A stretch of 64,000 bases of DNA from Candidatus Latescibacterota bacterium. Its GTDB lineage: Bacteria > Latescibacterota > UBA2968 > UBA8231. This document shows positions 48,450 through 62,934 of this stretch, piece by piece (positions within the stretch are counted from its first letter, which is position 1; every line of letters starts with the position of its first letter). Under the pieces are notes generated by a model, which was given only the letters and a program-made list of their open reading frames with translations, was not told where the DNA came from and searched no databases. The stretch is taken from contig CBDAOB010000004.1 in NCBI GenBank assembly GCA_965197905.1, positions 704,001 through 768,000 on the forward strand, given 5' to 3'. The position numbers and the translations under genes are program-made.

Positions 48450-49691
48450 TCAGGGCACGGGTTTCGATCTGTTTTTGTAGATCTCTTCGTGACCGGGGGG
48501 AATGACCCCGCCGATCTTCAGCGCCTGTTTTCCGTTCTCGCCGGCGAAGGGACGCGCCAGAAATTTGGGTTCCTCTTCGACGAAAACTACGACGGGTCCC
48601 GTCTTTGGTGTGTCCGAACAGATGATATCGCCGGTCTTCAACGTTCGGGCTTCGCCCAGGGAGATCTGCGTCCGCCCCAGCTCGGCCGTAACCGGCATGA
48701 AGGTCTTGTTCAGACGCTGGTTGTTCTGTTGAATCAGGTCATCTTTATTCGTCTGTGAAATCCGGACATAACTTTGTTGTCCCAACCGCGGCAGGATCGA
48801 TTCGAGGGTAAAGAAGGGATAGCACAGGCTGACCAGGCCCGAGGCGTTTGTAGAGTTGACCTCGAAAGCCAGCAGGATGACGATCTCACTGGCCGCCGTG
48901 ATCTGCATGAACTCCGGGTTGGTCTCCAACTCGATGTCGGTGACCTCTACCCGCAGAATCGGCTCCCAGGTCGCTTCCAGATCTTCGATGACCCGCTTGG
49001 TGATGCGATGAATCACACCAACCTCGATCGGGGTCAGGGTTCGCGGTTCCACGCCTTTGTGGGAGCCCTTACCGCCGAAAATCCTGTCGACGAAAGCGAA
49101 GGTTACCGGCATGGCAAAATCGATGATCGCCTGCCCATTGGTGGGACCCAATGTAAACTGGTAGGAACAGGACGGATTCGACAGTGACATGATGAATTCG
49201 GCATAGGTAGTCTGGTCCACGAACGCCGTTTCCACATCCACCACGGCACGCATGGCGCCGGAAAAGGTGGAGCTCAGCAGTCGGGCGAAGTTGTCGTGCA
49301 GGTTTTCCAGGGTGCGCAGCTGATCCTTGTTCACCCTCGCCGGGTGTTTAAAGTCGTAGCTGGTGACTATTCGTTTTTGAGGTCGTCCGCGGTTCTCCTT
49401 CTTCTGTTGCATCTCCATGTATTGAGCCAAAGCCTCTCCCATCGCCAGGCGCAGCTCCTCCCGCGCCTTTTTCGATATTCTCTTGCCCTTGAGCAGGGTG
49501 TCCAGCTCCTTCAGCGCTGCCGCCTCCAACGCCTCTCCCCGTTCATTGACCGCCAAACCTGCCAGTCTCTGCAGAAAACCCGAAATTTGGCTCTCGTCCA
49601 GCTTTTGCTTCTTGAGACGGCCGTAGAAACCGTCCGACTCCTTGGATAAGAGCAGCGCATCGATTTCATCCTGAGAGAGTATGTCAGCCAT
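48450..49691 (-). CDS. fliM: Flagellar switch protein FliM (copy 1)
   Basis: ILSQDEIDALL, YDFKHP, GGKG, LETNP and C-terminal SPOA domain. Confidence 0.92.
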   Translation of the reverse strand: MADILSQDEIDALLLSKESDGFYGRLKKQKLDESQISGFLQRLAGLAVNERGEALEAAALKELDTLLKGKRISKKAREELRLAMGEALAQYMEMQQKKENRGRPQKRIVTSYDFKHPARVNKDQLRTLENLHDNFARLLSSTFSGAMRAVVDVETAFVDQTTYAEFIMSLSNPSCSYQFTLGPTNGQAIIDFAMPVTFAFVDRIFGGKGSHKGVEPRTLTPIEVGVIHRITKRVIEDLEATWEPILRVEVTDIELETNPEFMQITAASEIVILLAFEVNSTNASGLVSLCYPFFTLESILPRLGQQSYVRISQTNKDDLIQQNNQRLNKTFMPVTAELGRTQISLGEARTLKTGDIICSDTPKTGPVVVFVEEEPKFLARPFAGENGKQALKIGGVIPPGHEEIYKNRSKPVP

Positions 49692-49709
49692 GTCAGTCTC
49701 CTACAAATC

Positions 49710-51023
49710 TTAGACGTAATCGTCTCCGGTGTCGCCGCGAACTATCCTAACCTTCCCCTGCTCTTCGAGCTGCCTCACTGTTTGCACGATCCGCAGCTGC
49801 ACCTCCTCCACATCACGGCGCAGCATCCGTTCCAGCCCCTCCATGCCTTCTCGAACCGAGGTGCAAGCCCGCTCCGACATGTTGCTGAAAAATCGTTCTC
49901 GCAGTTCCTCGCCGGCCTGTTTTAGTGCGATGGTAAGATCTTTCTCATCTGTTTCGCGTAACAGAGTCTGGATTTCGGTATCCGTCATCTTGCCGATCTC
50001 GGCGAAAGTAAACATCTGATTGCGCACTGATTCGGCCACCTCCGGATCCTGCGCATCCATCTGGTTGAGAACGGTCCGCTCCACGCTTGAGCCCGTCAAA
50101 TTCAGCACGTCGGCCAGCACCTTGGGTCCGCCTACGTCCTGATCCCGACCGAGCAAGTCTCGAAGAGAAGCTTCCAAAGCTTCTTCGAGGTTCGCGATCA
50201 CCTTTTGAGGGACGTTCTCGGTAGTCGCCATTCGATATGACACGTCTGCCTGTAAACGTTCGGGCAATTGTGCCAGTACCCCTGCTGACCTGCGTGGTTC
50301 AAGCTGCGAGAGAATGAGCGCGATCGTCTGCGGGTGCTCGTTAGATAAGAAGGGAGCGATCTGATCCGCCTCCACTCTGTTGAGCATGCTGAACCCGGAT
50401 TCGGTAGAATCTATATTCCTGTCAACAAAGTGATTCGCCCGGTGTGGTCCCACCACCTTGGTCAGCAGCCCGCGGGCATACGCCGGGCCGCCGATCTCCA
50501 CGTAGTCACCAGCCACGATGCGCCGGTGCGCTGTCTCCAACGCGTGCATAGCGAGCTGATGCCCAACCTCGGGCATCTCCGCAATAGCTCGCGCGACGAG
50601 CTGAGTTTCCTCGCCCAGATGTCGGCAGACCTGGGCACCAATTTCCTCGCCCAGACCGATCAATATGGCCGCTACCAACTGTTGAGCAGTCAGATCAGAG
50701 AGCGGTCCCTCGTCCCGGCTTGCCTCTTCTCTTCGGATGATAGTTCGGACCACGGCTGCTGTTTCTTTAGCGTGGTGAAAGAGGTAGGCATGGGTGCTGT
50801 CAGCGGCGATTCCAGACGGTAGGAGAGGCGCCGAGGAGGTGTCGGGAGGTTTTGCCACAGCCTCCACGGTCTGGGGGCGCGGTTTTGGCACGTGCAGGGG
50901 TGGCATCGCGTCGACGGCAGCCTCGTCTGGGCATGTCCAGCTTGCAACCGTTTGTTTCTCTTTAAACTCGGTCGAGCCGCCCACGATGCGGGCCCCTGTA
51001 GTTTTTTGAGGCGCGGCGCTCAT
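49710..51023 (-). CDS. fliG: FliG-family protein with N-terminal extension
   Basis: [32 protein letters not shown] and DVEE.Q. Confidence 0.9.
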   Translation of the reverse strand: MSAAPQKTTGARIVGGSTEFKEKQTVASWTCPDEAAVDAMPPLHVPKPRPQTVEAVAKPPDTSSAPLLPSGIAADSTHAYLFHHAKETAAVVRTIIRREEASRDEGPLSDLTAQQLVAAILIGLGEEIGAQVCRHLGEETQLVARAIAEMPEVGHQLAMHALETAHRRIVAGDYVEIGGPAYARGLLTKVVGPHRANHFVDRNIDSTESGFSMLNRVEADQIAPFLSNEHPQTIALILSQLEPRRSAGVLAQLPERLQADVSYRMATTENVPQKVIANLEEALEASLRDLLGRDQDVGGPKVLADVLNLTGSSVERTVLNQMDAQDPEVAESVRNQMFTFAEIGKMTDTEIQTLLRETDEKDLTIALKQAGEELRERFFSNMSERACTSVREGMEGLERMLRRDVEEVQLRIVQTVRQLEEQGKVRIVRGDTGDDYV

Positions 51024-51295
51024 GAGGTCACCTCGTGATCGACGGGAAAATCGTGAAGGCGGGTGATGCGTACGGCCATGAGGTCTGTAACAACCACGAT
51101 CTCCCCTTCGGCAAAGGGCCTCCGGTTGACCAGCACACCGAAGGCCTCGCCGGCCAGTTTATCGAGCTCGATGACGTCGAACGCCTGCAGCCTCCGTACC
51201 TGACCCAAGGTCATTTCCTTGCGACCCAATTCCACCATCACTTCGGCCACCACATTGGCCAGATCCGCGCGTGGGGTGCTTTCGAGAGTTGTCAT
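51020..51295 (-). CDS. fliN: FliN/SPOA-domain protein (type B)
   Basis: VELGR, VIELDKLAGE and GEIVVV..MAVRIT. Confidence 0.82.
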   Translation of the reverse strand: MTTLESTPRADLANVVAEVMVELGRKEMTLGQVRRLQAFDVIELDKLAGEAFGVLVNRRPFAEGEIVVVTDLMAVRITRLHDFPVDHEVTS

Positions 51296-51307
51296 TCGGA
51301 CCTCCTC

Positions 51308-51604
51308 TCAGACCTGTCCCAGAACCTCGGTGAGTCGCACGCCGAAGTTCTCATTGACCGTGATGACCTCACCCCGAGCGAAGTGTTTGCCGTTGACGAA
51401 TACGTCGATGGGATCGCCCACCTCCTTGTCCAATTCGATCAGCGACTGTTCGCCCATGTCGGAGATGTCCTCCATGGTTTTCGTGGTACCACCGAGTACC
51501 ATCTGGACCATGACGGGCATATCCTCGAGCAGGTCGATATTGTCACGTGGTGCCGCCGGCTTCGGCGGAACTGCCTTTTTCTTTGGGGTCTTGCTCGTTG
51601 CCAT
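51308..51604 (-). CDS. fliN: FliN/SPOA-domain protein (type A)
   Basis: IELDK..GDPIDVFVNGK.FARGEVITVNENFGVRLTE. Confidence 0.88.
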   Translation of the reverse strand: MATSKTPKKKAVPPKPAAPRDNIDLLEDMPVMVQMVLGGTTKTMEDISDMGEQSLIELDKEVGDPIDVFVNGKHFARGEVITVNENFGVRLTEVLGQV

Positions 51605-51695: not shown

Positions 51696-53201
51696 CTAGG
51701 TAGATGGAGCTTCCCTAAGGTCAAGACCGAACCTGTAGGCGTAGAGCACCGCTGGCCCATCCGCCTCAAAATGCAGTCGCACTTCCTGACCCACGAAACG
51801 TGCCAGATCGCTGCGCTCCTGCCCCCAGGTGATTTCGAAGTCGGTTTGGTCGTCGCGCTCCAGGCCGTTGCAGTTGTCCAGCTCGAACCCTTCCGGAACC
51901 TCGGTATCGCATACCACCCGAACTCGGATGCGGCCGTTGTTACTCGGCTTCTTTGTGCCGAAAACGCTGGCATTCAGAAATAACCTTGCGCCGTCGACCC
52001 GCACGGGTTCAGTCATCAACTCGCCGGCGCCACCCGTGCACATCCCCACGAATCCATCCTTGCGCAACGTCGCCAGACCGATGGCCGCCTGGAACTTTTG
52101 ATCGCTGCCGTGACGACGCATGCCCGAATACCAGATGTGCAGCACGTTGTCCTTGAGGATGGGCGGATTCAGCGATGACGAGACCCAGCCATGGTCCCAG
52201 GCGCCCGGGGTCCCGATGGGCAGGAACTGTTCGTGTTTCCCGACTCGATGCCACTTCGTGAGGTCGCGCGCCGTAGCCAGCTCAGTTGCACCTTGGCCCG
52301 TCGAGGTGTAGAAGAGCGCCAGAAATCCCAGGTATTGATTGCCATAGGCAAACGGCGTCATCAGCTCGAACTGGTCGCGTGTCTCGTCGAAGTCATCCGG
52401 TTTGAGAACCGTCTCCATCGGAGTCCAGTTGACGAAGTCCTCGCTGGTACTCAAGGCGACCACCTTGCGGTACTGCTTCCACTGCAGAATGAAATGATCG
52501 GCAATCGTCCCAGCGCGCCGCGACACGGCTATGAACCGACGTGTGCCCGGATCGAAAACGACCGCGCCGCCATCGCCGGCTCTCGCAATAGACGGTTGGT
52601 CGTCCAGGGTCCAGCGGATTCCATCGTTGGAGTGGGCAGTGTACATGCCATGGCGCTCGAGCACGGACTCAAAATACCTTCGCCGGTCTTCCGGACTCGC
52701 TGATTTTCCGGCACGAGGCAGCTCTGCCTGGCGCTCCTGGTAGTACCCCATCTTGTAACGGCGCGTTGCGTCTTCTTCGCGGTCATCCTTGATGATGCCC
52801 CACGGGTGCAGCGAGCCGTGCTCCGGACGAGTTTCCGGCGTGGGGTAAACGATGTTGTTCGCCGTAGATCCCTGAAACGGGAACACGCCCAGCTCGGGCT
52901 TGTCCCACTTCACGCCGTCGGTTGAGCTGGCGTAACAGATATACTTCTGGGCTTCGTTGCCGGCGCCGGCGGGACCGTGGGTGAAGTACCACATTTTGAG
53001 GAGGTCTTCGTCGCCGTCGTAGAGGACCGATCCCCACATCTGCACCGCGCTGCCTTCCCAGGGACGGTCGGCACGCAGCACCGGCTCGGTCTGGGCGCGA
53101 GCAGGTTGTTGCACCTTGCGCACGAAACCGGGATGATCCTGAACCTCGGCGTCATCTACGAATAGGTGCAGACCAGGATCGTGGAGATCACTGACGATCA
53201 T
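51696..53201 (-). CDS. Hypothetical beta-propeller glycosidase-like protein
   Basis: Repeated S.DG..W Asp-box-like motifs and LRKDGF. Confidence 0.65.
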   Translation of the reverse strand: MIVSDLHDPGLHLFVDDAEVQDHPGFVRKVQQPARAQTEPVLRADRPWEGSAVQMWGSVLYDGDEDLLKMWYFTHGPAGAGNEAQKYICYASSTDGVKWDKPELGVFPFQGSTANNIVYPTPETRPEHGSLHPWGIIKDDREEDATRRYKMGYYQERQAELPRAGKSASPEDRRRYFESVLERHGMYTAHSNDGIRWTLDDQPSIARAGDGGAVVFDPGTRRFIAVSRRAGTIADHFILQWKQYRKVVALSTSEDFVNWTPMETVLKPDDFDETRDQFELMTPFAYGNQYLGFLALFYTSTGQGATELATARDLTKWHRVGKHEQFLPIGTPGAWDHGWVSSSLNPPILKDNVLHIWYSGMRRHGSDQKFQAAIGLATLRKDGFVGMCTGGAGELMTEPVRVDGARLFLNASVFGTKKPSNNGRIRVRVVCDTEVPEGFELDNCNGLERDDQTDFEITWGQERSDLARFVGQEVRLHFEADGPAVLYAYRFGLDLREAPST

Positions 53202-55382: not shown

Positions 55383-55438
55383 GTAACTCTTCGAGCCACC
55401 AATCAAGGTGCCACCATCAATTCGTAAGAGGTATCGCC

Positions 55439-55801
55439 ATGAAAAACCTTTTGCAGATCGTCTGCGCAATTTTCGCCACCGCTCTGTTTGTTTTCGGATC
55501 CGGATGTTCGTCGTCCAGTACATCCTCTGAACCTGGCAGGGTAGGAAAGCTGGGAGTACAGCGCGACAGAGAAAGCAATGAAACCGAGGAAGAGATCGCC
55601 ATTGAAGCATTGCCGGCCGTAGTGGTCGATGCCGTAAACGGTGCCGTCGAAGGCGGCGTTATCGTTGAAGCCGAGAGGGAAACCGAAGACGGCCAGGTGA
55701 TTTACGAAGTGGAGGTTGACGTGGATGGCGTTGAGTGGGAAGTGGAAGTCGATGAGGATGGCAACGTGCTCGAGGTTGAAAGTGAGGACGATGAGGAGTG
55801 A
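55439..55801 (+). CDS. PepSY-like exported (lipo)protein
   Basis: Signal peptide with lipobox-like GSGC; LP.VV..AV, YEVEV and EVEVDEDGNVL. Confidence 0.78.
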   Translation: MKNLLQIVCAIFATALFVFGSGCSSSSTSSEPGRVGKLGVQRDRESNETEEEIAIEALPAVVVDAVNGAVEGGVIVEAERETEDGQVIYEVEVDVDGVEWEVEVDEDGNVLEVESEDDEE

Positions 55802-55844
55802 GGACGATGAGGATGAGGATGAGGATGAGGATGATGACGATTGA
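55781..55844 (+). repeat. 16-bp tandem duplication followed by a GAGGAT microsatellite
   Basis: AGTGAGGACGATGAGG at 55781 and 55797, then GAGGAT repeats. Confidence 0.85.
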
Positions 55845-55856
55845 GCCGTAGAACCA

Positions 55857-55906
55857 CAAGAGGCGACGATGGCGCGCGAACCTAAGAGCGCCGTCGCCGC
55901 CTCTTG
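55857..55906. terminator. Stem-loop between convergent genes
   Basis: CAAGAGGCGACGATGGCGC...GCGCCGTCGCCGCCTCTTG, an imperfect 19-bp stem. Confidence 0.55.
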
Positions 55907-56011
55907 CTGCATGTCCTTTGCTTAGCTCCGACCCGCGTCTTCCAAGCTCTCGCAGACAACAGTCCCTTATCGCCTGACGTCCAGGAGGGATCGCAGAAAT
56001 GCGGGTGAGTT

Positions 56012-59000
56012 CTACCGGCGTTGCGCATTCTTGATTTTTTCCAACAGCCTCTGAATCGACGCCATGTCGAAAGATTCCGCATGTTCCTGCATCGTCGTCG
56101 CCAGCTGGTTGGCACCCGGTCCTATCTCCCCTAGCTCGGCCAGCGCCTGCCGCAACTCGGTTATGTTGGCCACCGCGGCGGACTGGGTTAGACGAGTGAC
56201 TAATTCTGCAGGCAGCGAAACGCGACTTGGATCGATCGGCGCTTCCACCTTAAGCGCCGGTTCTGCCGCATCCCTATCGGAGTAAACGAATTCCACCCCC
56301 AGCAGATCTGCCAGACAACTGTAGATCTGTTCGACGCGTACCGGTTTGCCGACAAACTCGTCGAACCCCGACGACAGATAGTGCTGACGTTCGTGTTCCA
56401 ACGTCGAAGCGGAGACAGCCACCGCTTTGATCGCTGTCGTCGCTGGATCTGTCTTCAACCGTTCAACCGCCTCGTTGCCATCCATTTCCGGCATGCGAAT
56501 ATCCATGAAGACGATATCCACCGTCTCTTCACGCGCCGCCTCCACCGCTTCGCGACCGTTGACGGCTTGCACGACGTGAACGCCGATCGCTTCCAAGAAT
56601 TGCGCCAGGATGTCGCGATTCTCCTTGACGTCATCCGCCACAAGGGCGCGCACGGAGTGAGCCGGATCCAGTCCAACGATACGACTCCAGTCGCGCTCCA
56701 CTTTTGGTGGCAACACGCTCTGCGACCGGGATAATTTGATGCTGAACGAGAAGGTGGTTCCTTTTCCGACCGCGGACTCCAGCTCGAGGGTACCCCCCAT
56801 CAACTCCACCAATCGCTTCGACACCGCGAGTCCGAGCCCGGTGCCGCCGCGCTCGTACCCCGCGCTGCCCTGCTGAAAAGGCTGGAACAGCTCCTGTTGC
56901 TCATCGGCACCGATACCTTGCCCCGTGTCCGTCACCACGAACCGATAGTTGTCGGGACCCGCAGGGGTGACGTTCAAAGAAACGGAACCTTTCTGGGTAA
57001 ACTTCACCGCATTGCCCAGCATGTTTATGAGCACCTGCATGAGTTTGCTTTCGTCGCCTCGAACCGAGACGCGGCCCGGGCTCGGCAACTCGAGGCGCCA
57101 TTCGAGACCCGCTTCGCGACAGCGAAGATCAAACATTACCGCTAGGCTCTGGAGCAGCTGGTCCAGGTCGAAATCCGACTCCTGAATCACCATTCGGCCC
57201 GCTTCGATCTTCGAGATGTCCAGGACCTCATTGATCAGCTTGAGCAGATGATCGCCGCTGGTCTGGATCGTTCCCACCGCCTGCCTGTGTTTGTCGGTCA
57301 GATCCGGGCTGTTCTGCATGATCTGCGCGTAGCCGATGATCGCGTTCATTGGCGTGCGAATTTCGTGGCTGATATTAGCCAGGAATTGCGACTTGGCCTG
57401 GTTGGCCAACTCGGCCGCATCCTTGGCTTCGCGGAGTTCGGAAATCAATTGGTTCTGAGCTTCGGTGGCCTCCTGAAAATCGCTGTAGCGGGCGTAGGCC
57501 AAGTCTACGACTTCGGCGAAGTCTTGGACGCGCCCAATCTCGCCCCCGGTAAATGCGGTTCCCTGACCGCTCCATCCCCGTTGCAATACCAGCGCGCCAC
57601 GGCTGTAAGGCACGTTGACTCCCCAGATCCTGGCTTTGGTATTGAGGGTGTCATCGGGTTCTAGGGTCGCCCAGCTCGATTTTTCCTGCTCCGTCATCTC
57701 CCCATGCCAAGTCTGTGCGGAACGCCATTGTTCGATGTAGTTGTGACTGAATTCGGTTTTTGCTTCGTTTGAAAGAACCTGGAGTCCGGTCTCCTCGTCC
57801 TCGGGGCGAACAACCTGTATGGTACCAGTCGCTTCGTTCAGAACGCAGACGTAAAGCAGATCGAATCTAACCCCCATTTGACGCAATTCGTCTCCTACCT
57901 GGACGATCACCTTTTGAAGATCATCCGACCTCTTCATGGCGAGAATAGTACTGCGGACCCGCTCGAGGGCTTGCTCCGCGGAGAAGCTGCGCAACAGATC
58001 TGCCATGTCGGTGTCGTCTTTGTCGACGCTCTCGAGGATGTTACGCGTGACCGGCGTGCTGCTTATGTTGAGAATGTCGGCTACAACCTTCGGGCCACCC
58101 ACGTCCTGGTCGCCAACCAGGATATCCCTCAACGACTGTTCCAGGGCTTCTTCTATCTGGTTGATGGCGTTGGGGGTGACGCTATCCATGGTCGCCATTC
58201 GATAGGCGACATCTGCCTGCAGAGGCTCGGGAAATTGGGCCAGAAGGCCGGCAGCCTGGTCCGCACCTAGCTGCGAGGCAATTAGCGCTATGGTCTGCGG
58301 GTGCTCATTGGCCAGAAACGGCGCCAGTTGATCTGGTTCCACGTTCTTGAGCATGTAGAATCCAGCCGTCACCCTGCTGGAGACGCGGGCTAGGATCTCT
58401 TTGGCTCGGGGCGCTCCAACGGCACGGGTAACTGCGGCGCGGGCAAAGTCCATTCCTCCGGTGCTCAACCACGTTCCTGCAAGCAGATGCTGCCTGAACT
58501 CTTCCAGCACGTCGTCGCGAAGCGCTTTCGGAGTGCCCTGCAAACGGGCAATCGCCTGGGTGGTCTCCTCTATCTCGAAATCGGAGAGATGTTGCATTAT
58601 CATGCCGGACACCTCTTGGCCGACAGCGACCATCACGATGGCCGCTTTTTGAATCGCCTCTAGCCCGCTCTCTTCGGTGGATTCATCGTCAACAAGCATC
58701 GTGCTCACCAGGTTGGCCGCCTCAGCCGGACGGTTACGCATGAATTCGTAGACAGAGGTAGATTCGTCAACGTGAAACGGAGCTGAGTCCTCTGTGCGAG
58801 TCGTACCTGTTTCGAGCCGTCCCTGCTCCGTGACGGAGGGCGCGATCTCCTGCTCGGGTTGATCGTCTCGTACTGGAGAAGCTTCAGCCGCGCCTGGCGC
58901 CCTTTCCTCCTGAAGGAGGGAGAAGGCCTGTTCCCAATTCGTCGAGGACGGGTACGCTGGCACGGGTGCCATCGAACCTACCTCGCTGTGGGAGGGGGGT

Positions 59001-59083
59001 CTCCACTCCTCAACGGAAACCAGATGTAACTTGCTGCTCCTCAATCCTAGAATGCGACCCGCGGATTTCTCTGATGCAGACAT
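56012..59083 (-). CDS. FliG(N/M)-GAF-like-hybrid histidine kinase fusion
   Basis: [21 protein letters not shown] and [11 protein letters not shown], then [27 protein letters not shown] and REC (ADD, MDIRMP, KP), all in one frame. ATG at 59083 after GAGGAGG. Confidence 0.9.
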
Positions 59084-59104
59084 CTGTTCCTCCTGCCTCG
59101 TCAC

Positions 59105-59461
59105 CTATGATTCCTCACGAAGCGATTCTGACCCAATGGAATCGAGTCGCAGATCGTATGCCTGTTCCTTGCGAACGTGGAAGCGGACCAGCCTGCAAGC
59201 AATGCGATCTCCAAGCACGACGATCTCGCTTTCGGCAAACGGATGGTTGTTGGCCAGAACGGCGAACGCTTCCCCGGCTTGTTTATCCAGAACGATGACG
59301 TCGTCTGGACCCAAATCGGAAACCTCGCTCAGCGGCATGCGTTTGCGACCCATTTCGACCACCAGCTGCATACGTACGCTTCCCAGATGTTGCAGGTTTT
59401 CCGCTTCACGCCGCAGCAGGTCTGTCGCCTCGTTCGGGTTGAGTGATAAGCTTTCGTTCAT
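59105..59461 (-). CDS. fliN: FliN/SPOA-domain protein (type B)
   Basis: VEMGRK, VIVLDKQAGEAF and FAESEIVV. Confidence 0.78.
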   Translation of the reverse strand: MNESLSLNPNEATDLLRREAENLQHLGSVRMQLVVEMGRKRMPLSEVSDLGPDDVIVLDKQAGEAFAVLANNHPFAESEIVVLGDRIACRLVRFHVRKEQAYDLRLDSIGSESLREES

Positions 59462-59760
59462 TTTTCGTCCGCTCCGGAATCCAGAATCTCCGTCACTCGC
59501 ACACCGAAGCTCTCACCGACAGTCACCACGTCCCCTTTGGCGAACTGCTTGCCGTTCAGGCGAATGTCGATCGACTCTCCCACCAACCGGTCCAACTCGA
59601 TAATCGAATGTTCGTCCATTTCCAAAAGCCGGTCCAAGGTCTCCTCGGTGCGCCCCAATTCCATGCAGACCGTCACCATGACGTCCGGAATTTCGGCGGG
59701 TTTGTGCGTTGCATCGGTCTTGATTGCTTTCGTGGTCGCTTCCTGCTTCGTCCCGGGCAT
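59458..59760 (-). CDS. fliN: FliN/SPOA-domain protein (type A)
   Basis: ELGRT, IIELDRLVGESIDIRLNGK.FAKGDVVTVGESFGVRVTE. Confidence 0.88.
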   Translation of the reverse strand: MPGTKQEATTKAIKTDATHKPAEIPDVMVTVCMELGRTEETLDRLLEMDEHSIIELDRLVGESIDIRLNGKQFAKGDVVTVGESFGVRVTEILDSGADEK

Positions 59761-59781
59761 GTCTGTTAGCTCCTGTCTGTT

Positions 59782-60786
59782 CTATTGGCCTTCCAATGGA
59801 TAGTCTGCCTTCAACTCTTGCGGTACCTTTCCCACGACCTGCAGCTTGATTTCTCCAGCCTCGTTCGCAAACGGACGGGCGTAGAGCTTGGGCTCGCCGC
59901 CGACAAACACGATGCAGGGGTCGGTCTTGTGACCTCGCATGCAGACCACGTCGCCCACCCGCATTCCGTCGACGTCTTCCAGGGCCAGGTCAGTGCGTCC
60001 CATCTCCACTACCAGCGGCATCTTCGCGGGGCCGAGCACCGAGCGGTTGCGCCGAGTCGTTGCCTCCCGATTCAAACGGGGGCCACGTACATAGTGTTGT
60101 TCGCCTAAAAGGGGTAGAATGGGCTCCAATGTGAAGAAAGGATAGCACATCTTGACCAATTGCTTGCTGATATGCGCTGAATTCACCTCAAATGCGATAA
60201 GGATTACGATTTCGCTGGGAGCGGTGATTTGGAGGAACTCAGGGTTGGTCTCCAGCTCGATGTCGGTGATCTTAACCTTTTGAATCGGCGCCCACGTTGC
60301 CTCGAGATCCCCGATGACGCGCTTGGCCGAACGGTGCGTGACGCCGACCTCGATCGGTGTCATCGTCCGGCCTTCGACTCCTTCCGATGAGCCCTTCCCC
60401 CCAAAAGTCCGGTCTACCAGCGCGAACACGAGCGGCAAAGGGAAATCGAGGATTGCCAGTCCGCGAGTGGGGCCCAGCGCGAACTGGTAGGAACAGGAAG
60501 GATTGCTCAAGGACATGATGAACTCTGCGTAGGTAGTCTGATCGACAAAAGCGGTATCGACGTCGACCACGCCCCGCATAGCCCCGGAGAGCGTGGAGCT
60601 GAGCAGTCGGGCCAGATTGTCGTGCAGGTTCTCAAGGGTCCGCAGCTGTGATCTGCTTACCCTTGCGGGGTGTTTGAAATCGTAGTCGGTCGCCGGCTTG
60701 CGCTCCCCTTCCTCCTTTATCGATGGTGCTTCGTGATTGTTGCTTTTCGCGTCCTCCCGCTGTGCCTTAGCGCTCTCTGACATCAT
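59782..60786 (-). CDS. fliM: FliM (copy 2) lacking the CheY-binding peptide
   Basis: YDFKHPARV, GGKG, LETNP and SPOA domain; near-identical core to copy 1; GGAGG before ATG at 60786. Confidence 0.9.
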   Translation of the reverse strand: MMSESAKAQREDAKSNNHEAPSIKEEGERKPATDYDFKHPARVSRSQLRTLENLHDNLARLLSSTLSGAMRGVVDVDTAFVDQTTYAEFIMSLSNPSCSYQFALGPTRGLAILDFPLPLVFALVDRTFGGKGSSEGVEGRTMTPIEVGVTHRSAKRVIGDLEATWAPIQKVKITDIELETNPEFLQITAPSEIVILIAFEVNSAHISKQLVKMCYPFFTLEPILPLLGEQHYVRGPRLNREATTRRNRSVLGPAKMPLVVEMGRTDLALEDVDGMRVGDVVCMRGHKTDPCIVFVGGEPKLYARPFANEAGEIKLQVVGKVPQELKADYPLEGQ

Positions 60787-60818
60787 CGATACCTCCGCTG
60801 CAAGGTGGAACATTCGTC

Positions 60819-62324
60819 TCATCCTGGATGCTGCGCGGCTCCGTCCGCATCTGGTGCCTCGCCCTGGACCGACCGCAACACGCGATAAAGCCGGTTCCGG
60901 CTCGTGCCCAGTAGCTCCGCCGCCTTCGTCAGGTTCCCATCACAATGAGCCATCGCTTTTTCTAGAACCTTCGATTCAGCCTGCAGTGCAGCCGCATCGA
61001 GATCCAGCGGCAGCTCGTCTTCAGTGCTGATCCTAGTTTCCGTGTCCGCCGCCCCACCTTTCGGCGCCACTGGAAAATTCAAATGATGCACCTCGATTCC
61101 CTTGCCGCGACTCTCTATCACTGCCCGTTCGACGACGTTCTTCAGCTCCCGCACGTTGCCGGGAAAATCGTAGGTCTCCAGGCGGCCGACCGCCTCCGCG
61201 CTCAGGTCCGGCAGGTCGCATCCCATCTCCTCGGCGAACAGCCGTGCAAAGTGATTCGCCAACAGGCCGATGTCATCCCGGCGCTTGCGAAGCGGCGGCG
61301 TCTCAACGGTGTAGCGTGCCAGACGGTAGTAGAGATCCCGCCGAAACGAGCCTTCCTGAATCCAATTCTGAAAATCGACGTTGGTCGCTGCGAGAATGCG
61401 CACATCGACGTGCCGGCTTGCGGTCGCGCCCACCGGCCACACCTCCCCATCTTCGAGCACGCGCAGCAGCTTGGTCTGCAGTGCCGGCGGCATGTCCCCA
61501 ATCTCGTCGAGGAAAAGGGTGCCGCCGTGTGCCATCTCGAAATAGCCGATGCGATCCTCGCTGGCGCCCGTAAATGCGCCGCGCCGATGGCCGAACAGTA
61601 CCGACTCTACCAGGTCTGTGGGGATTGCGCCGCAGTTCACCGGGACAAACGGTCCGTCCCGGCGCTCGCTGCCATAGTGGATCGCCCGCGCGATCAGCTC
61701 TTTGCCGGTGCCGCTTTCGCCGGTGATCAGCACCGAGGTGGTGGGGTTCTCCTGCATGAGCTCGACCTCGGCAAAAATCTTGCGCATTGTCGAGCTGTCC
61801 CCGATAAGACCTTCCAGCCCCCAGCGTTCCTCTTCGCGGCGGGAAATCATCGAGAGTTGCCCGCGCAGAGATTTGCGCATGCTGATCTCACTCTCGAGCT
61901 CCCGATTCTTCTCTTCAAGGGCCAGATGCAACCGCCGGAGTTGGATGTGCGCCGTTACCCGTGCCAGCACCTCTTCTTCCCGGAAAGGTTTGACCACGTA
62001 GTCCACGCCACCGGCCTGGAAGCCGGCGATGACGGCCTCTTTCTCGTCCCGGCCGGTGAGGAATATGACCGGGATAGCTGCGGTCTCCGGTTCAGCTTTC
62101 AGGCGTCTGCAAACCTCGAAGCCATCCATTTCGGGCATGACGACATCGAGCAGAACAAGGTCCGGATTGGCCTGCTTGGCGATCTTTAGAGCCGCAGCTC
62201 CCTCGGTCGCGACCATTACCTTGTGTCCTCTTGCTTCGAGGACCTGCAGAAGCAGTTTGAGATTTGTCGGGTTGTCATCGACGGTCAGGACTCGAAAAGT
62301 TGTGTTGACTTGATCTGCGGTCAT
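60819..62324 (-). CDS. Sigma-54-dependent response regulator (NtrC family; REC-AAA+-HTH)
   Basis: REC domain, GESGTGKE, GAFTGA, LFLDEIG, FPGNVREL and Fis-type HTH. Confidence 0.95.
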   Translation of the reverse strand: MTADQVNTTFRVLTVDDNPTNLKLLLQVLEARGHKVMVATEGAAALKIAKQANPDLVLLDVVMPEMDGFEVCRRLKAEPETAAIPVIFLTGRDEKEAVIAGFQAGGVDYVVKPFREEEVLARVTAHIQLRRLHLALEEKNRELESEISMRKSLRGQLSMISRREEERWGLEGLIGDSSTMRKIFAEVELMQENPTTSVLITGESGTGKELIARAIHYGSERRDGPFVPVNCGAIPTDLVESVLFGHRRGAFTGASEDRIGYFEMAHGGTLFLDEIGDMPPALQTKLLRVLEDGEVWPVGATASRHVDVRILAATNVDFQNWIQEGSFRRDLYYRLARYTVETPPLRKRRDDIGLLANHFARLFAEEMGCDLPDLSAEAVGRLETYDFPGNVRELKNVVERAVIESRGKGIEVHHLNFPVAPKGGAADTETRISTEDELPLDLDAAALQAESKVLEKAMAHCDGNLTKAAELLGTSRNRLYRVLRSVQGEAPDADGAAQHPG

Positions 62325-62350
62325 TGCCAGTTGGCTTCCACATGATGGAT

Positions 62351-62367
62351 GGCAAAGGACATGCCAA
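62351..62367 (-). promoter_or_regulatory. Sigma-54 -24/-12 promoter
   Basis: Minus strand TTGGCATGTCCTTTGCC matches TGGCA-N6-TTGC (GG-N10-GC), about 27 nt upstream of the ATG at 62324. Confidence 0.78.
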
Positions 62368-62395
62368 ACCTGAACGAGCCACTGCTAGAGTGGTA

Positions 62396-62408
62396 TAACT
62401 TATTGTAA
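62396..62408 (-). promoter_or_regulatory. IHF-like site
   Basis: TTACAATAAGTTA resembles WATCAA-N4-TTR, in an AT-rich patch between promoter and palindrome. Confidence 0.5.
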
Positions 62409-62457
62409 ATTATCGTTTAAACTTGATTTCATAGCGATGGGATCAACGGGCAAGGTG

Positions 62458-62475
62458 CGTACCGAAATCGGTACG
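62458..62475. promoter_or_regulatory. Palindromic operator / upstream activator sequence
   Basis: CGTACCGA-AA-TCGGTACG, with partial copies at 62508-62519 and about 62601-62610. Confidence 0.6.
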
Positions 62476-62934
62476 TACGCCACGCATTCGGAGCACCGCT
62501 ACGCTAGGAAATCGGTACGAGGAACCAGGCGAACCCTGTTTGGAACGCACACAGTGTACGGAAGACTCGGGCAGATTCCTACTTCGCATTTCTGCTAGGT
62601 TTTCGGTACAGAGTCTGATTCAGGTCGGCAGCGAATTGAAGCGTGGACACCCTCAACAAGGATGACAGGTTTTGACAGAGACTACTGAGGTTTGGAAGAG
62701 ACACCCCCGGGAGCGGGCGCCTTCAGGTCTAGCCAATCATCTATACAATGGATTGGTATGATCGAAACGGCAACCGGCATTCCACACCGAGCACTGGTTT
62801 CCGTGCGCCAGAATACCCCCCGGTCCTGGTGTAGCAGGTTCCAGGTCATGAACGTGGGATTGCGATTGTGAAATCGTTTCAGCCGCCGGAACGTGGGTCG
62901 AGGTAGGAAGACCCCGGTCCCGGCCAACCCCTTC

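Follow-up and report, generated by a model that had tools for sequence, protein, structure and literature searches.

A FliG-histidine kinase fusion with flagellar switch parts as its proposed input module in a Candidatus Latescibacterota genome

Introduction

FliG is the textbook torque-and-switch protein of the bacterial flagellum, and the conformational change at its MFXF hinge is still debated. In a stretch of 64,000 nucleotides from a Candidatus Latescibacterota genome (contig CBDAOB010000004.1, positions 704,001 to 768,000; referred to below as the window), the minus-strand gene at 56012..59083 encodes a FliG protein in which a hybrid histidine kinase takes the place of the torque domain from this hinge onwards. 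This fusion was described in an original prediction made from the letters of the window. We wanted to know whether the fusion is a genuine gene and, if so, whether a FliG that continues into a kinase would still work in the flagellar motor or would serve another purpose. The analyses presented here confirm that the FliG::kinase gene is real and conserved, and that it encodes a two-component kinase with an unprecedented putative input module made of flagellar switch parts. They suggest that these parts have been turned into a sensor that stands on its own, a function that we infer from sequence, predicted structure and gene order.

Results

The minus strand of the window contains an open reading frame (ORF) without interruption at 56012..59104, which yields 1030 amino acids (aa) when translated from the GTG at position 59104 and 1023 aa when translated from the ATG at position 59083; the plus strand of this region is full of stops. 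Because the ATG form is 100% identical to the database protein P0002, and because its start fits the MS... starts of the homologues, 56012..59083 is the likely gene. The original prediction had spoken of a single unbroken ORF of about 1020 aa without naming the strand, and this ORF is indeed present. All residue numbers given below are those of the 1030-aa form starting at GTG 59104, and all domains of the protein are encoded on the minus strand.

The simplest alternative explanation is an artefact, in which a chimeric assembly or a frame error has joined a FliG gene to a kinase gene. The assembly does contain frame breaks in other genes, since flhA and motA are each present in two frames. However, Logan contigs from four sequencing runs (two samples from two studies, one of them perhaps the source sample) bridge the whole gene and its junction. 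These short contigs cover positions 55759-61733, 55847-62500, 55758-59274 and 56074-60976, span at least 55758-59274, and differ from the window by 0-3 letters. Moreover, a 16-sequence alignment revealed the same junction in 15 homologues with 38-58% identity, and the fusion is encoded in three other genomes. Conservation of the junction rules out a frame error at the fusion, and the probability that we assign to an artefact is negligible. Two doubts that had accompanied the original prediction, namely that the reads might not support the junction and that homologous fusions might not exist elsewhere, are thereby removed.

Further relatives were obtained in other searches. A word-indexed protein search produced 11 additional clusters with 45-58% identity, nine of which contain all five Pfam domains of the fusion, the other two being truncated or lacking HATPase_c; one homologue bears the NCBI label Candidatus Latescibacterota. 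In an exhaustive search of 50%-identity representatives, six clusters aligned across both the FliG part and the GAF part described below. In the 16-sequence family alignment the EHPQ motif, the Gly-Gly pair, R372 and H580 are invariant, and the position of the junction is fixed. A contig scan with HisKA-box patterns listed 80 loci from many phyla, which all match the kinase half only (residues 491 onward) and are uninformative on the fusion. A metagenome pattern scan gave 211 matches, two of which are weak relatives of the GAF part (26-31% identity), and a search of the ESM Atlas with residues 1-560 gave a best score of 0.81, which is a lead only.

The Pfam matches of the kinase protein are all above the gathering scores, with E-values from 1e-21 to 1e-29. 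The FliG_N domain (PF14842; residues 148-244, positions 58373..58663) is detected with an E-value of 6.4e-29 and 101.1 bits against a cut-off of 25, and matches the solved FliG_N chains 5wuj_B and 5tdy_B. It is followed by the FliG_M domain (PF14841; residues 257-327, positions 58124..58336; E 1.4e-29, 102.6 bits), whose EHPQ motif (E267, H268, P269 and Q270) is identical in the 16 sequences, as are G336 and G337 of the Gly-Gly linker. This linker and the ARM-C helices, delimited by alignment and by predicted helices, extend from residue 336 to residue 372 (57989..58099) and lead up to the former MFXF hinge, with ARM-C helices predicted by AlphaFold (AF2) at residues 338-347 and 350-363. All of these elements had been named in the original prediction, and the strings quoted there were all found. 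The FliG_C domain (PF01706) was not found in the kinase protein by Pfam. The NCBI FliG equivalog TIGR00207 scores 193.9 bits, which is below its cut-off of 226.7, and residues 145-370 correspond to positions 6-233 of the 338 positions of this model. Likewise, the match to solved FliG proteins covers residues 2-227 of 331 for Salmonella and residues 4-234 of 329 for Aquifex.

To locate the junction, residues 140-420 were aligned with eight FliG paralogues of the same genome. Homology to these paralogues runs through EHPQ, Gly-Gly and ARM-C, and stops at the LMFVF hinge, at residue 372 (about position 57989). At this point the fusion reads LRS-FS, the hyphen marking the junction, and the paralogues read VRNLMFVF (AEAVRNLMFVFADI). 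The replacement of the torque domain exactly at the MFXF hinge, which was the central claim of the original prediction, therefore stands; the paralogue string EVAESVRNQMFTFAEI that it had cited for the hinge occurs in the 437-aa FliG encoded at 49710-51023. The FliG part of the fusion is 52-56% identical to six FliGs of canonical length, 41% identical to FliG 49710-51023 and 29% identical to a paralogue on contig C1. The latter, of 327 aa, ends at the same hinge and is devoid of FliG_C, and hence the N-M-ARM-C part behaves as a module in this lineage.

The region preceding FliG_N contains a further flagellar element. BLASTP and a family profile identified residues 107-144 (58673..58786) as a homologue of the C-terminal tail of FliF, of which the genome encodes a single copy. 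When the last 70 residues of this FliF were compared with the fusion protein by BLASTP, residues 121-140 were aligned with 50% identity over 20 aa (E 2e-4), and the last 45 residues of FliF are 69% identical to residues 142-186 of the homologue P0005 (E 1e-18). We also built a tail profile from the corresponding segment of 15 family members, and compared it with the complete set of 36,361 genomic ORFs of 60 aa or more. The best genome match was the very end of FliF (residues 455-491 of 491; E 4.7e-18), the fusion protein itself being recovered with an E-value of 2e-13. The next match was FliG 49710-51023 (residues 67-101; E 6.6e-5), whose relation to the FliF tail is supported by the profile alone, as BLASTP gave an E-value of 1.0. 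For the C1 FliG, a likeness by eye to the FliF tail and to the N-terminal motif described below is not claimed, the profile E-values of 0.13 and 4.5 not being significant.

The helices of the tail segment are predicted by AF2 at residues 118-138, with a predicted local distance difference test (pLDDT) of 67-86, and are flanked by disordered linkers. The FliF C-terminus and FliG_N are known to fold together (Lynch et al. 2017, as cited in PMC8956890). Judged by its sequence, this segment is homologous to the C-terminal peptide with which FliF binds FliG_N, and FliG_N would thus be loaded in cis. A protein loaded in this way would neither need nor could easily use the MS ring, which argues against canonical docking on that ring.

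Downstream of the hinge, residues ~373-546 (57467..57988) form a domain that is entered by the predicted helix 365-388, which continues ARM-C. No Pfam family, including GAF, GAF_2 and GAF_3, matched residues 372-560 at E-values up to 0.01. A model of residues 336-566 was considered at the level of fold; it was built from 4 alignment rows and has a mean pLDDT of 67, which drops below 50 over model residues 129-156. VIA-align superimposed this model, over model residues 36/40-211, on 20 solved chains with Z-scores of 8.0-10.3 and root-mean-square deviations of 3.2-4.7 Å over 115-171 aligned residues, and 18 of these 20 chains are titled GAF or GAF-containing regulatory domains. Since Foldseek gave no match at E <= 0.001, only weak GAF rows with E-values of about 1e-3, the GAF assignment rests on VIA-align. 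The description of this domain as GAF-like thus holds for its fold and fails for its sequence.

The full-length AF2 model, based on a 16-row alignment, has a mean pLDDT of 74.5 and a predicted template modelling score of 0.38. It predicts that helix 365-388 runs from ARM-C into the alpha/beta domain (residues 393-509) and that a second long helix (residues 520-597) leads into the DHp domain. These features bear on the alternative that the GAF domain is the real sensor, recognizing a small ligand, and that the FliF-tail/FliG/FliM/FliN assembly is a scaffold from which no signal passes through the former hinge. Apart from the fold itself, this alternative can draw on the nature of the relatives of the GAF part, which an exhaustive profile-free search found as a generic module repeated 5-16 times in giant kinases and in SpoIIE/PP2C-type phosphatases, and on several residues inside the domain that are invariant in the 16 sequences (W466, W478, P499, G503 and R509/G510). 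However, no ligand pocket or known GAF sequence family is assignable, with the pLDDT below 50 in the region mentioned above. In addition, the junction is fixed to the residue in 16 of 16 sequences and lies in a helix that is predicted to be continuous, whereas a mere tether needs no such precision. We consider it unlikely that the GAF domain is the sole sensor.

The remainder of the protein has the organization of a hybrid kinase, and the succession of HisKA, HATPase and REC that had been proposed for it was retrieved by Pfam. HisKA/DHp occupies residues 570-636 (57197..57397; E 2.9e-23), with His580 as the phospho-acceptor; HATPase_c occupies residues 683-792 (56729..57058; E 4.1e-29), with Foldseek matches to kinase cores; and the receiver (REC; Response_reg) occupies residues 821-929 (56318..56644; E 2.3e-21), in which the DD...D(IRMPEMDG)...S...K pattern is visible. 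H580 is invariant, and the N and G boxes and the REC Asp are visible in the family alignment. When the whole model was used in Foldseek, ShkA (6qrj) came out on top (E 7e-19), and GacS, RetS and HK853 were also among the top matches; as modelled, the kinase core is ordinary. The highest 19-residue Kyte-Doolittle mean is 1.20-1.34 in six of six family members, compared with 2.55 for the FliF of the genome, in agreement with the earlier statement that no transmembrane segment is evident.

The protein ends with a conserved domain of four helices (residues 966-1029, positions 56018..56209), predicted by AF2 with a pLDDT of ~80. This domain belongs to no Pfam family (a search at E up to 10 returned one implausible row) and does not contain a conserved His in the 16 sequences. 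The possibility of a displaced FliG_C was discarded, because a BLASTP comparison with a FliG paralogue revealed no similarity. To pass phosphate on to a second receiver, hybrid kinases normally depend on an HPt domain. Pfam detected no HPt domain in the protein; stand-alone HPt proteins of the genome were not searched.

At the other end of the protein, residues 8-55 (58940..59083) contain a motif, GRILG..W.PPS.AEV..MPP.P.YP, that is conserved in 10 family members. Among the 36,361 ORFs of the genome, a profile of this motif matched only the fusion itself and FliG 49710-51023 (E 3.1e-5). Outside the genome, the tail profile matched 30 of the 148 stored representatives P0122-P0269, 26 of which were not among its building sequences, and the motif profile matched many of the same representatives. 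Four of these N-extended FliGs that were checked (P0126, P0132, P0129 and P0137) are full-length proteins with N, M and C domains. The motif is also found in natural single-chain FliM-FliN-FliG fusions of 800-924 aa (P0025, P0035 and P0040, one of which is labelled Gemmatimonadetes). It is internal in all three, and in P0025 it starts three residues after the last FliN-type domain. Its position directly after FliN domains provides a Rosetta-stone hint that the motif works beside them.

When the motif was modelled in complex with both FliN proteins of the operon described below, the prediction scored 0.37 and the best of three controls 0.00; the partners had a pLDDT of 51 or more, and agreement between the runs was 67% or more of the contacts. 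The mark used for such predictions is reached by 116 of 157 solved complexes and by 2 of 215 mismatches, and scores of 0.60 or lower are those of only 18 of these 157 complexes and of both passing mismatches. The prediction therefore lends weak support to a contact of the motif with the FliN pair.

The kinase gene is the last gene of an operon with the order NtrC-type activator, FliM, FliN, FliN and FliG::kinase, all on the minus strand. The first gene (60819..62324) encodes an NtrC-type sigma-54 activator with the Pfam architecture REC-AAA+-HTH, whose best NCBIfam rows, AtoC and NtrC, do not reach their cut-offs. It overlaps by 4 nt with the gene for a FliM paralogue of 346 aa with a GGKG loop (59782..60822; Pfam FliM, E 3.1e-47). 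Next come two genes with FliMN_C matches, which encode FliN-type proteins of 100 aa (type 1; 59458..59760; E 7.6e-19) and 118 aa (type 2; 59105..59461; E 1.5e-17); the former overlaps by 4 nt with the latter, whose stop abuts the upstream GTG of the kinase. The FliM, FliN and NtrC receiver that the original prediction had named are borne out by Pfam, next to the kinase gene.

The only match in the window to the strict sigma-54 pattern TGGCA[CT]N5TTGC is a promoter-like site, TGGCATGTCCTTTGC (62352..62366, minus strand), located 28 nt upstream of the ATG of the activator gene. The genome, which contains rpoN, has 76 such matches. When up to two mismatches were allowed, the window contained 61 matches compared with 60.3 expected; in view of this lack of enrichment, only the position and quality of the 62352-62366 site count. 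About 100 nt upstream of this site is a perfect palindrome, GTACCGAnnTCGGTAC (62459..62474), with a half-site at 62508-62518. It is a candidate binding site for the activator and occurs once in the 6.69-Mb genome. A similar promoter-like site is present before the operon of the relative G015. Among the RNA data sets consulted, none was listed as containing the kinase gene.

On its downstream side, the operon is ended by a convergent plus-strand gene (55439-55801) for a PepSY-like lipoprotein. Its product has a signal peptide with a Cys lipobox, a weak PepSY match and an acidic tail rich in Asp and Glu; the tail is encoded by a simple repeat at 55781-55846, where the short-read contigs break. 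A minus-strand ORF of 169 aa in this region (55403-55912) is spurious, since it contains a poly-Ser run and belongs to no family. With the genuine gene running in the plus direction, HAD and APH genes further downstream do not belong to the kinase operon.

The FliM of the operon keeps the FGGKG loop, but comparison with four other FliM paralogues showed that it is devoid of the N-terminal MADILSQDEIDALL peptide carried by the flagellar FliM and by the FliM at 48450-49691. This peptide binds CheY. A CheY input via the neighbouring FliM, which was considered as a candidate, is thus rejected for this genome.

The operon is part of a 7-kb cassette with an approximate extent of 55892..62926, which is absent from a genome of the same genus (G002). 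On the single contig of G002 the flanks of the cassette are collinear, with 78-91% identity, and are separated by 139 bp; no repeats were found at the cassette borders in the window. The fusion was found in 4 of the 168 species genomes of the phylum, which belong to four genera of one family (3 of the 75 other members of this family). The order FliM-FliN-FliN-FliG::kinase is kept in G015 and G008, and the NtrC-type activator is located upstream in the genome studied here (G000) and in G015. In full, the order is activator, FliM, FliN, FliN::FGE-sulfatase domain and FliG::kinase in G015, and FliM with a CheY-type peptide, FliN, FliN::FGE, FliG::kinase (in two frames) and REC-PP2C in G008; the short contig of G157 contains FliG::kinase and REC-PP2C. 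The FliN proteins fused to an FGE-sulfatase (formylglycine-generating-enzyme-like) domain (L118:11713-12792 in G015 and L120:7155-8531 in G008) are a further instance in which a switch protein has acquired a non-flagellar part. FlhA is intact in G002, G015, G008 and G157, and flhA is also present, in two frames, in G000. The absence of the cassette from G002, together with the flagellar genes there, identifies the cassette as an accessory unit in a flagellated lineage.

The distribution of the CheY-type peptide is relevant to another alternative, according to which the fusion and its partners form a decoy: a FliF-FliG-FliM-FliN mimic that sequesters CheY-like proteins, cyclic di-GMP (c-di-GMP) effectors or spare subunits, with the kinase reporting its occupancy. 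The peptide on the FliM of the sister cluster described below and on the FliM beside the G008 fusion would suit such titration, as would the large expansion of FliG, FliM and FliN paralogues in the family. The FliM beside the fusion in G000 and G015 is nevertheless without the peptide, and the conserved regulators of the cassette are the activator or REC-PP2C only. We regard a decoy as very improbable.

The genome contains nine genes with both FliG_N and FliG_M, namely six dispersed genes of canonical length and three that are located in "mini switch" clusters with a FliM and two FliN types. The six dispersed FliGs are much alike and have no flagellar neighbours, although one is near flagellin genes. 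Of the mini switch clusters, two are in the window and one is on contig C1. The flagellar cluster itself (fliE-fliF-fliH-fliI...) has no fliG between fliF and fliH, so that many loci would provide FliG isoforms in trans. Multiple FliG copies are common in the family, with up to 10 matches per genome and a match in 21 of 41 relatives. Only one flagellar-type motA was found, so the FliG paralogues are not matched by extra stators.

The sister mini switch cluster in the window (48450..51604, minus strand) encodes two FliN proteins (51308-51604 and 51020-51295), the N-extended full-length FliG (49710-51023) and a FliM (48450-49691). This FliM (413 aa) begins with the CheY-type peptide, after which ~90 aa are inserted. 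In the C1 cluster (G000:C1:140221-142782, L017), the N-extended FliG has QELPQ in place of EHPQ and its gene is located next to a serine recombinase. A fifth FliM (327 aa) is located beside fliS, and a few kb from it is a group II intron reverse transcriptase/maturase (L020:13761-15434, G000:C5). The flhA gene (C5:2476664-2478614) and the flagellar motA gene (C5:2485809-2486170) each consist of two adjacent frames, which reflect either assembly indels or a strain-specific decay of the flagellum. Between the two clusters of the window is a minus-strand ORF of 501 aa (51696-53201) without a Pfam or NCBIfam family and with more than 100 paralogues in the genome (phmmer, E <= 1e-3). It may belong to a large family of beta-propeller glycan-active proteins, the nearest named Atlas clusters being GH32-N/BNR-like.

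With FliG isoforms coming in trans to a flagellar cluster that has no fliG of its own, the fusion could be a minority FliG isoform of the real C-ring, incorporated through ARM-M/ARM-C stacking and FliM binding. This would put the kinase at the place where the torque domain meets the stators, and it could then inform sigma-54 transcription of the assembly of the ring, the engagement of stators or a switching event. Such a reporter would be the FlgS checkpoint in covalent form, FlgS itself being the precedent (PMC3760246). In addition to that precedent, the close relation of its FliG part to the FliGs of canonical length, with EHPQ and Gly-Gly invariant, and the presence of flagellar export genes in all fusion-bearing genomes are in keeping with a motor-integrated reporter. 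Several observations argue against it. The in-cis FliF-tail homologue should fill the groove of FliG_N, if the groove is occupied as proposed above, and a dedicated FliM and two FliN proteins are encoded together with the fusion. Dimerization through DHp would be awkward for single subunits in a 34-fold ring. Finally, the cassette is absent from a genome of the same genus that keeps its flagellar genes, and the promoter and the palindrome have no link to flagellar genes. On balance, we doubt that the fusion is a component of the motor.

Discussion

The results establish the anatomy and conservation of the fusion, its operon with a promoter-like site, the homology of its tail segment to FliF, the fold of the GAF domain and the fact that the cassette is accessory. 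Our best interpretation, which we consider as likely as not, is that a soluble, MS-ring-independent switch-complex protomer serves as the input of a two-component system. The steps outlined next, including the binding events, what the signal is and which way it flows, are inferred.

The helix pair resembling the FliF tail would fold in cis with FliG_N and so complete the split domain by which FliG is normally held at the MS ring. No MS ring would be needed, and probably none could be used. The EHPQ motif of FliG_M would bind the middle domain of the FliM encoded in the operon via its GGxG loop, and the N-terminal motif may contact the FliN-type pair. ARM-C would then move relative to FliG_M, as it does during motor switching, and in place of a torque domain the continuous helix could pass this movement to the GAF domain and from there, along the long signalling helix, to DHp. 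In this way the state or oligomerization of FliG, FliM and FliN, possibly combined with a GAF ligand, would set the autophosphorylation of His580. The phosphate would be transferred to the REC domain of the kinase itself and to the NtrC-type activator of the operon, REC-PP2C being a possible partner in two relatives, and the activator would drive sigma-54 transcription, including that of its own operon.

The original prediction had proposed that switch conformational changes or ring assembly could directly control autokinase activity. This proposal is plausible, and the predicted helix connecting ARM-C to the GAF domain fits it. The anatomy that the prediction described was right, and it had overlooked the FliF tail, the N-terminal motif and the missing CheY peptide of FliM. 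With these elements added, we tentatively propose a more specific reading, in which the fusion is a free-standing receptor. Outside the flagellum there would be a soluble protomer, or a small ring, made of the FliF tail, FliG, FliM and FliN. The movement between FliG_M and ARM-C that reverses a motor would be read by a kinase, in place of the torque domain that faces the stators, and the kinase would control sigma-54 transcription. The fusion would thereby represent the signalling members of a larger family of mini switch complexes that do not depend on the MS ring, in which N-extended FliGs with a FliF tail of their own are combined with a dedicated FliM and two FliN types. The lineage has three such clusters beside six further FliG genes of canonical length.

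A number of observations weigh against our best interpretation, that of a soluble switch-complex protomer. The FliG part of the fusion is 52-56% identical to canonical-length FliGs and thus nearer to them than to the N-extended FliG (41%). The tail of this protein is the most diverged in the family (50% over 20 aa), and that of its homologues is 69% identical to the tail of the real FliF. Given such strong conservation of the FliG part and the FliF tail, the protein could equally still work at the real motor, or compete with it. All four fusion-bearing genomes are flagellated, as judged by FlhA. The contact of the N-terminal motif with the FliN pair has weak support from complex prediction, and the FliM peptide, absent in G000 and G015, is present in G008, so the input is not uniform in the family. 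On the output side, no HPt was found in the protein, the C-terminal helical domain has no conserved His, and the palindrome is unique, which means that no regulon beyond the operon itself is visible.

A hinge that feeds a kinase would be of interest beyond this lineage. Autophosphorylation would provide a read-out of the conformation of FliG, FliM and FliN, and this could be reconstituted with soluble parts, in the absence of a membrane ring. Moreover, the in-cis FliF tail and the dedicated FliM and FliN proteins suggest that some switch complexes occur outside flagella, which would widen the known uses of flagellar parts. In the full-text literature searched, whose scope leaves out most subscription journals, we found no paper on a FliG-kinase fusion, on FliGs bearing a FliF tail or on genomes with many FliGs. 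This agrees with the earlier statement that no characterized protein has this architecture. In the literature listings, the only FliG paralogues named are FliG1 and FliG2 of spirochaetes.

Compared with canonical FliG (TIGR00207; FliG_N/FliG_M/FliG_C; solved, for example, as 3hjl and 8umd), the fusion is alike in FliG_N, in FliG_M with EHPQ, in the Gly-Gly linker and in ARM-C. Canonical FliG continues after the hinge with the torque domain, whereas the fusion is devoid of this domain and has instead an N-terminal extension with the FliF-tail homologue and a GAF-kinase-REC part. Its nearest non-kinase relatives are the N-extended FliGs and the FliM-FliN-FliG fusions (49-57% identity), which have the same N-terminal motif, but keep FliG_C and contain no kinase. 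Most of these proteins have a FliF-tail homologue before FliG_N. No description of either group was found in the literature searched.

With soluble hybrid kinases that have cytoplasmic sensors, such as ShkA (6qrj) and the GacS and RetS cores, the fusion has the HisKA-HATPase_c-REC core in common. ShkA is activated by c-di-GMP, and none of these kinases has flagellar switch domains as its input, unlike the fusion. A covalent connection between FliF and FliG_N is known from laboratory FliF-FliG fusions of Salmonella and Vibrio (PMC6079021 and PMC10941966; chain 8z4d_1, "Flagellar M-ring protein, FliG"), in which the FliF C-terminus is placed on FliG_N as it is here. Such fusions consist of the whole membrane ring protein and a full FliG, and they form motor rings. 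The natural protein described here differs in having only the last ~40 residues of FliF and no transmembrane segment, and in the replacement of FliG_C.

The closest working precedent is the FlgS/FlgR system of Campylobacter jejuni, in which FliF and FliG were co-precipitated with FlgS, a cytoplasmic kinase whose target of activation is the NtrC-type FlgR (Boll and Hendrixson 2013, PMC3760246). A kinase without transmembrane segments and an NtrC-type activator are thus features of both systems. In C. jejuni the association is non-covalent, requires an assembled MS ring and type III secretion system, and controls flagellar genes. Here, a single gene unites the kinase with the FliF tail and FliG, its operon also encodes the activator, and flagellar genes showed no connection to it. 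This activator is no FlgR orthologue, as it scores 255.8 bits with the FlgR model against a cut-off of 750. The genetic organization of the FliG::kinase operon is different from that of FlgS/FlgR, in that the kinase itself contains the segments from FliF and FliG and is accompanied by dedicated FliM and FliN proteins, and the fusion offers a covalent counterpart to the question of how kinases such as FlgS sense the assembly of FliF and FliG.

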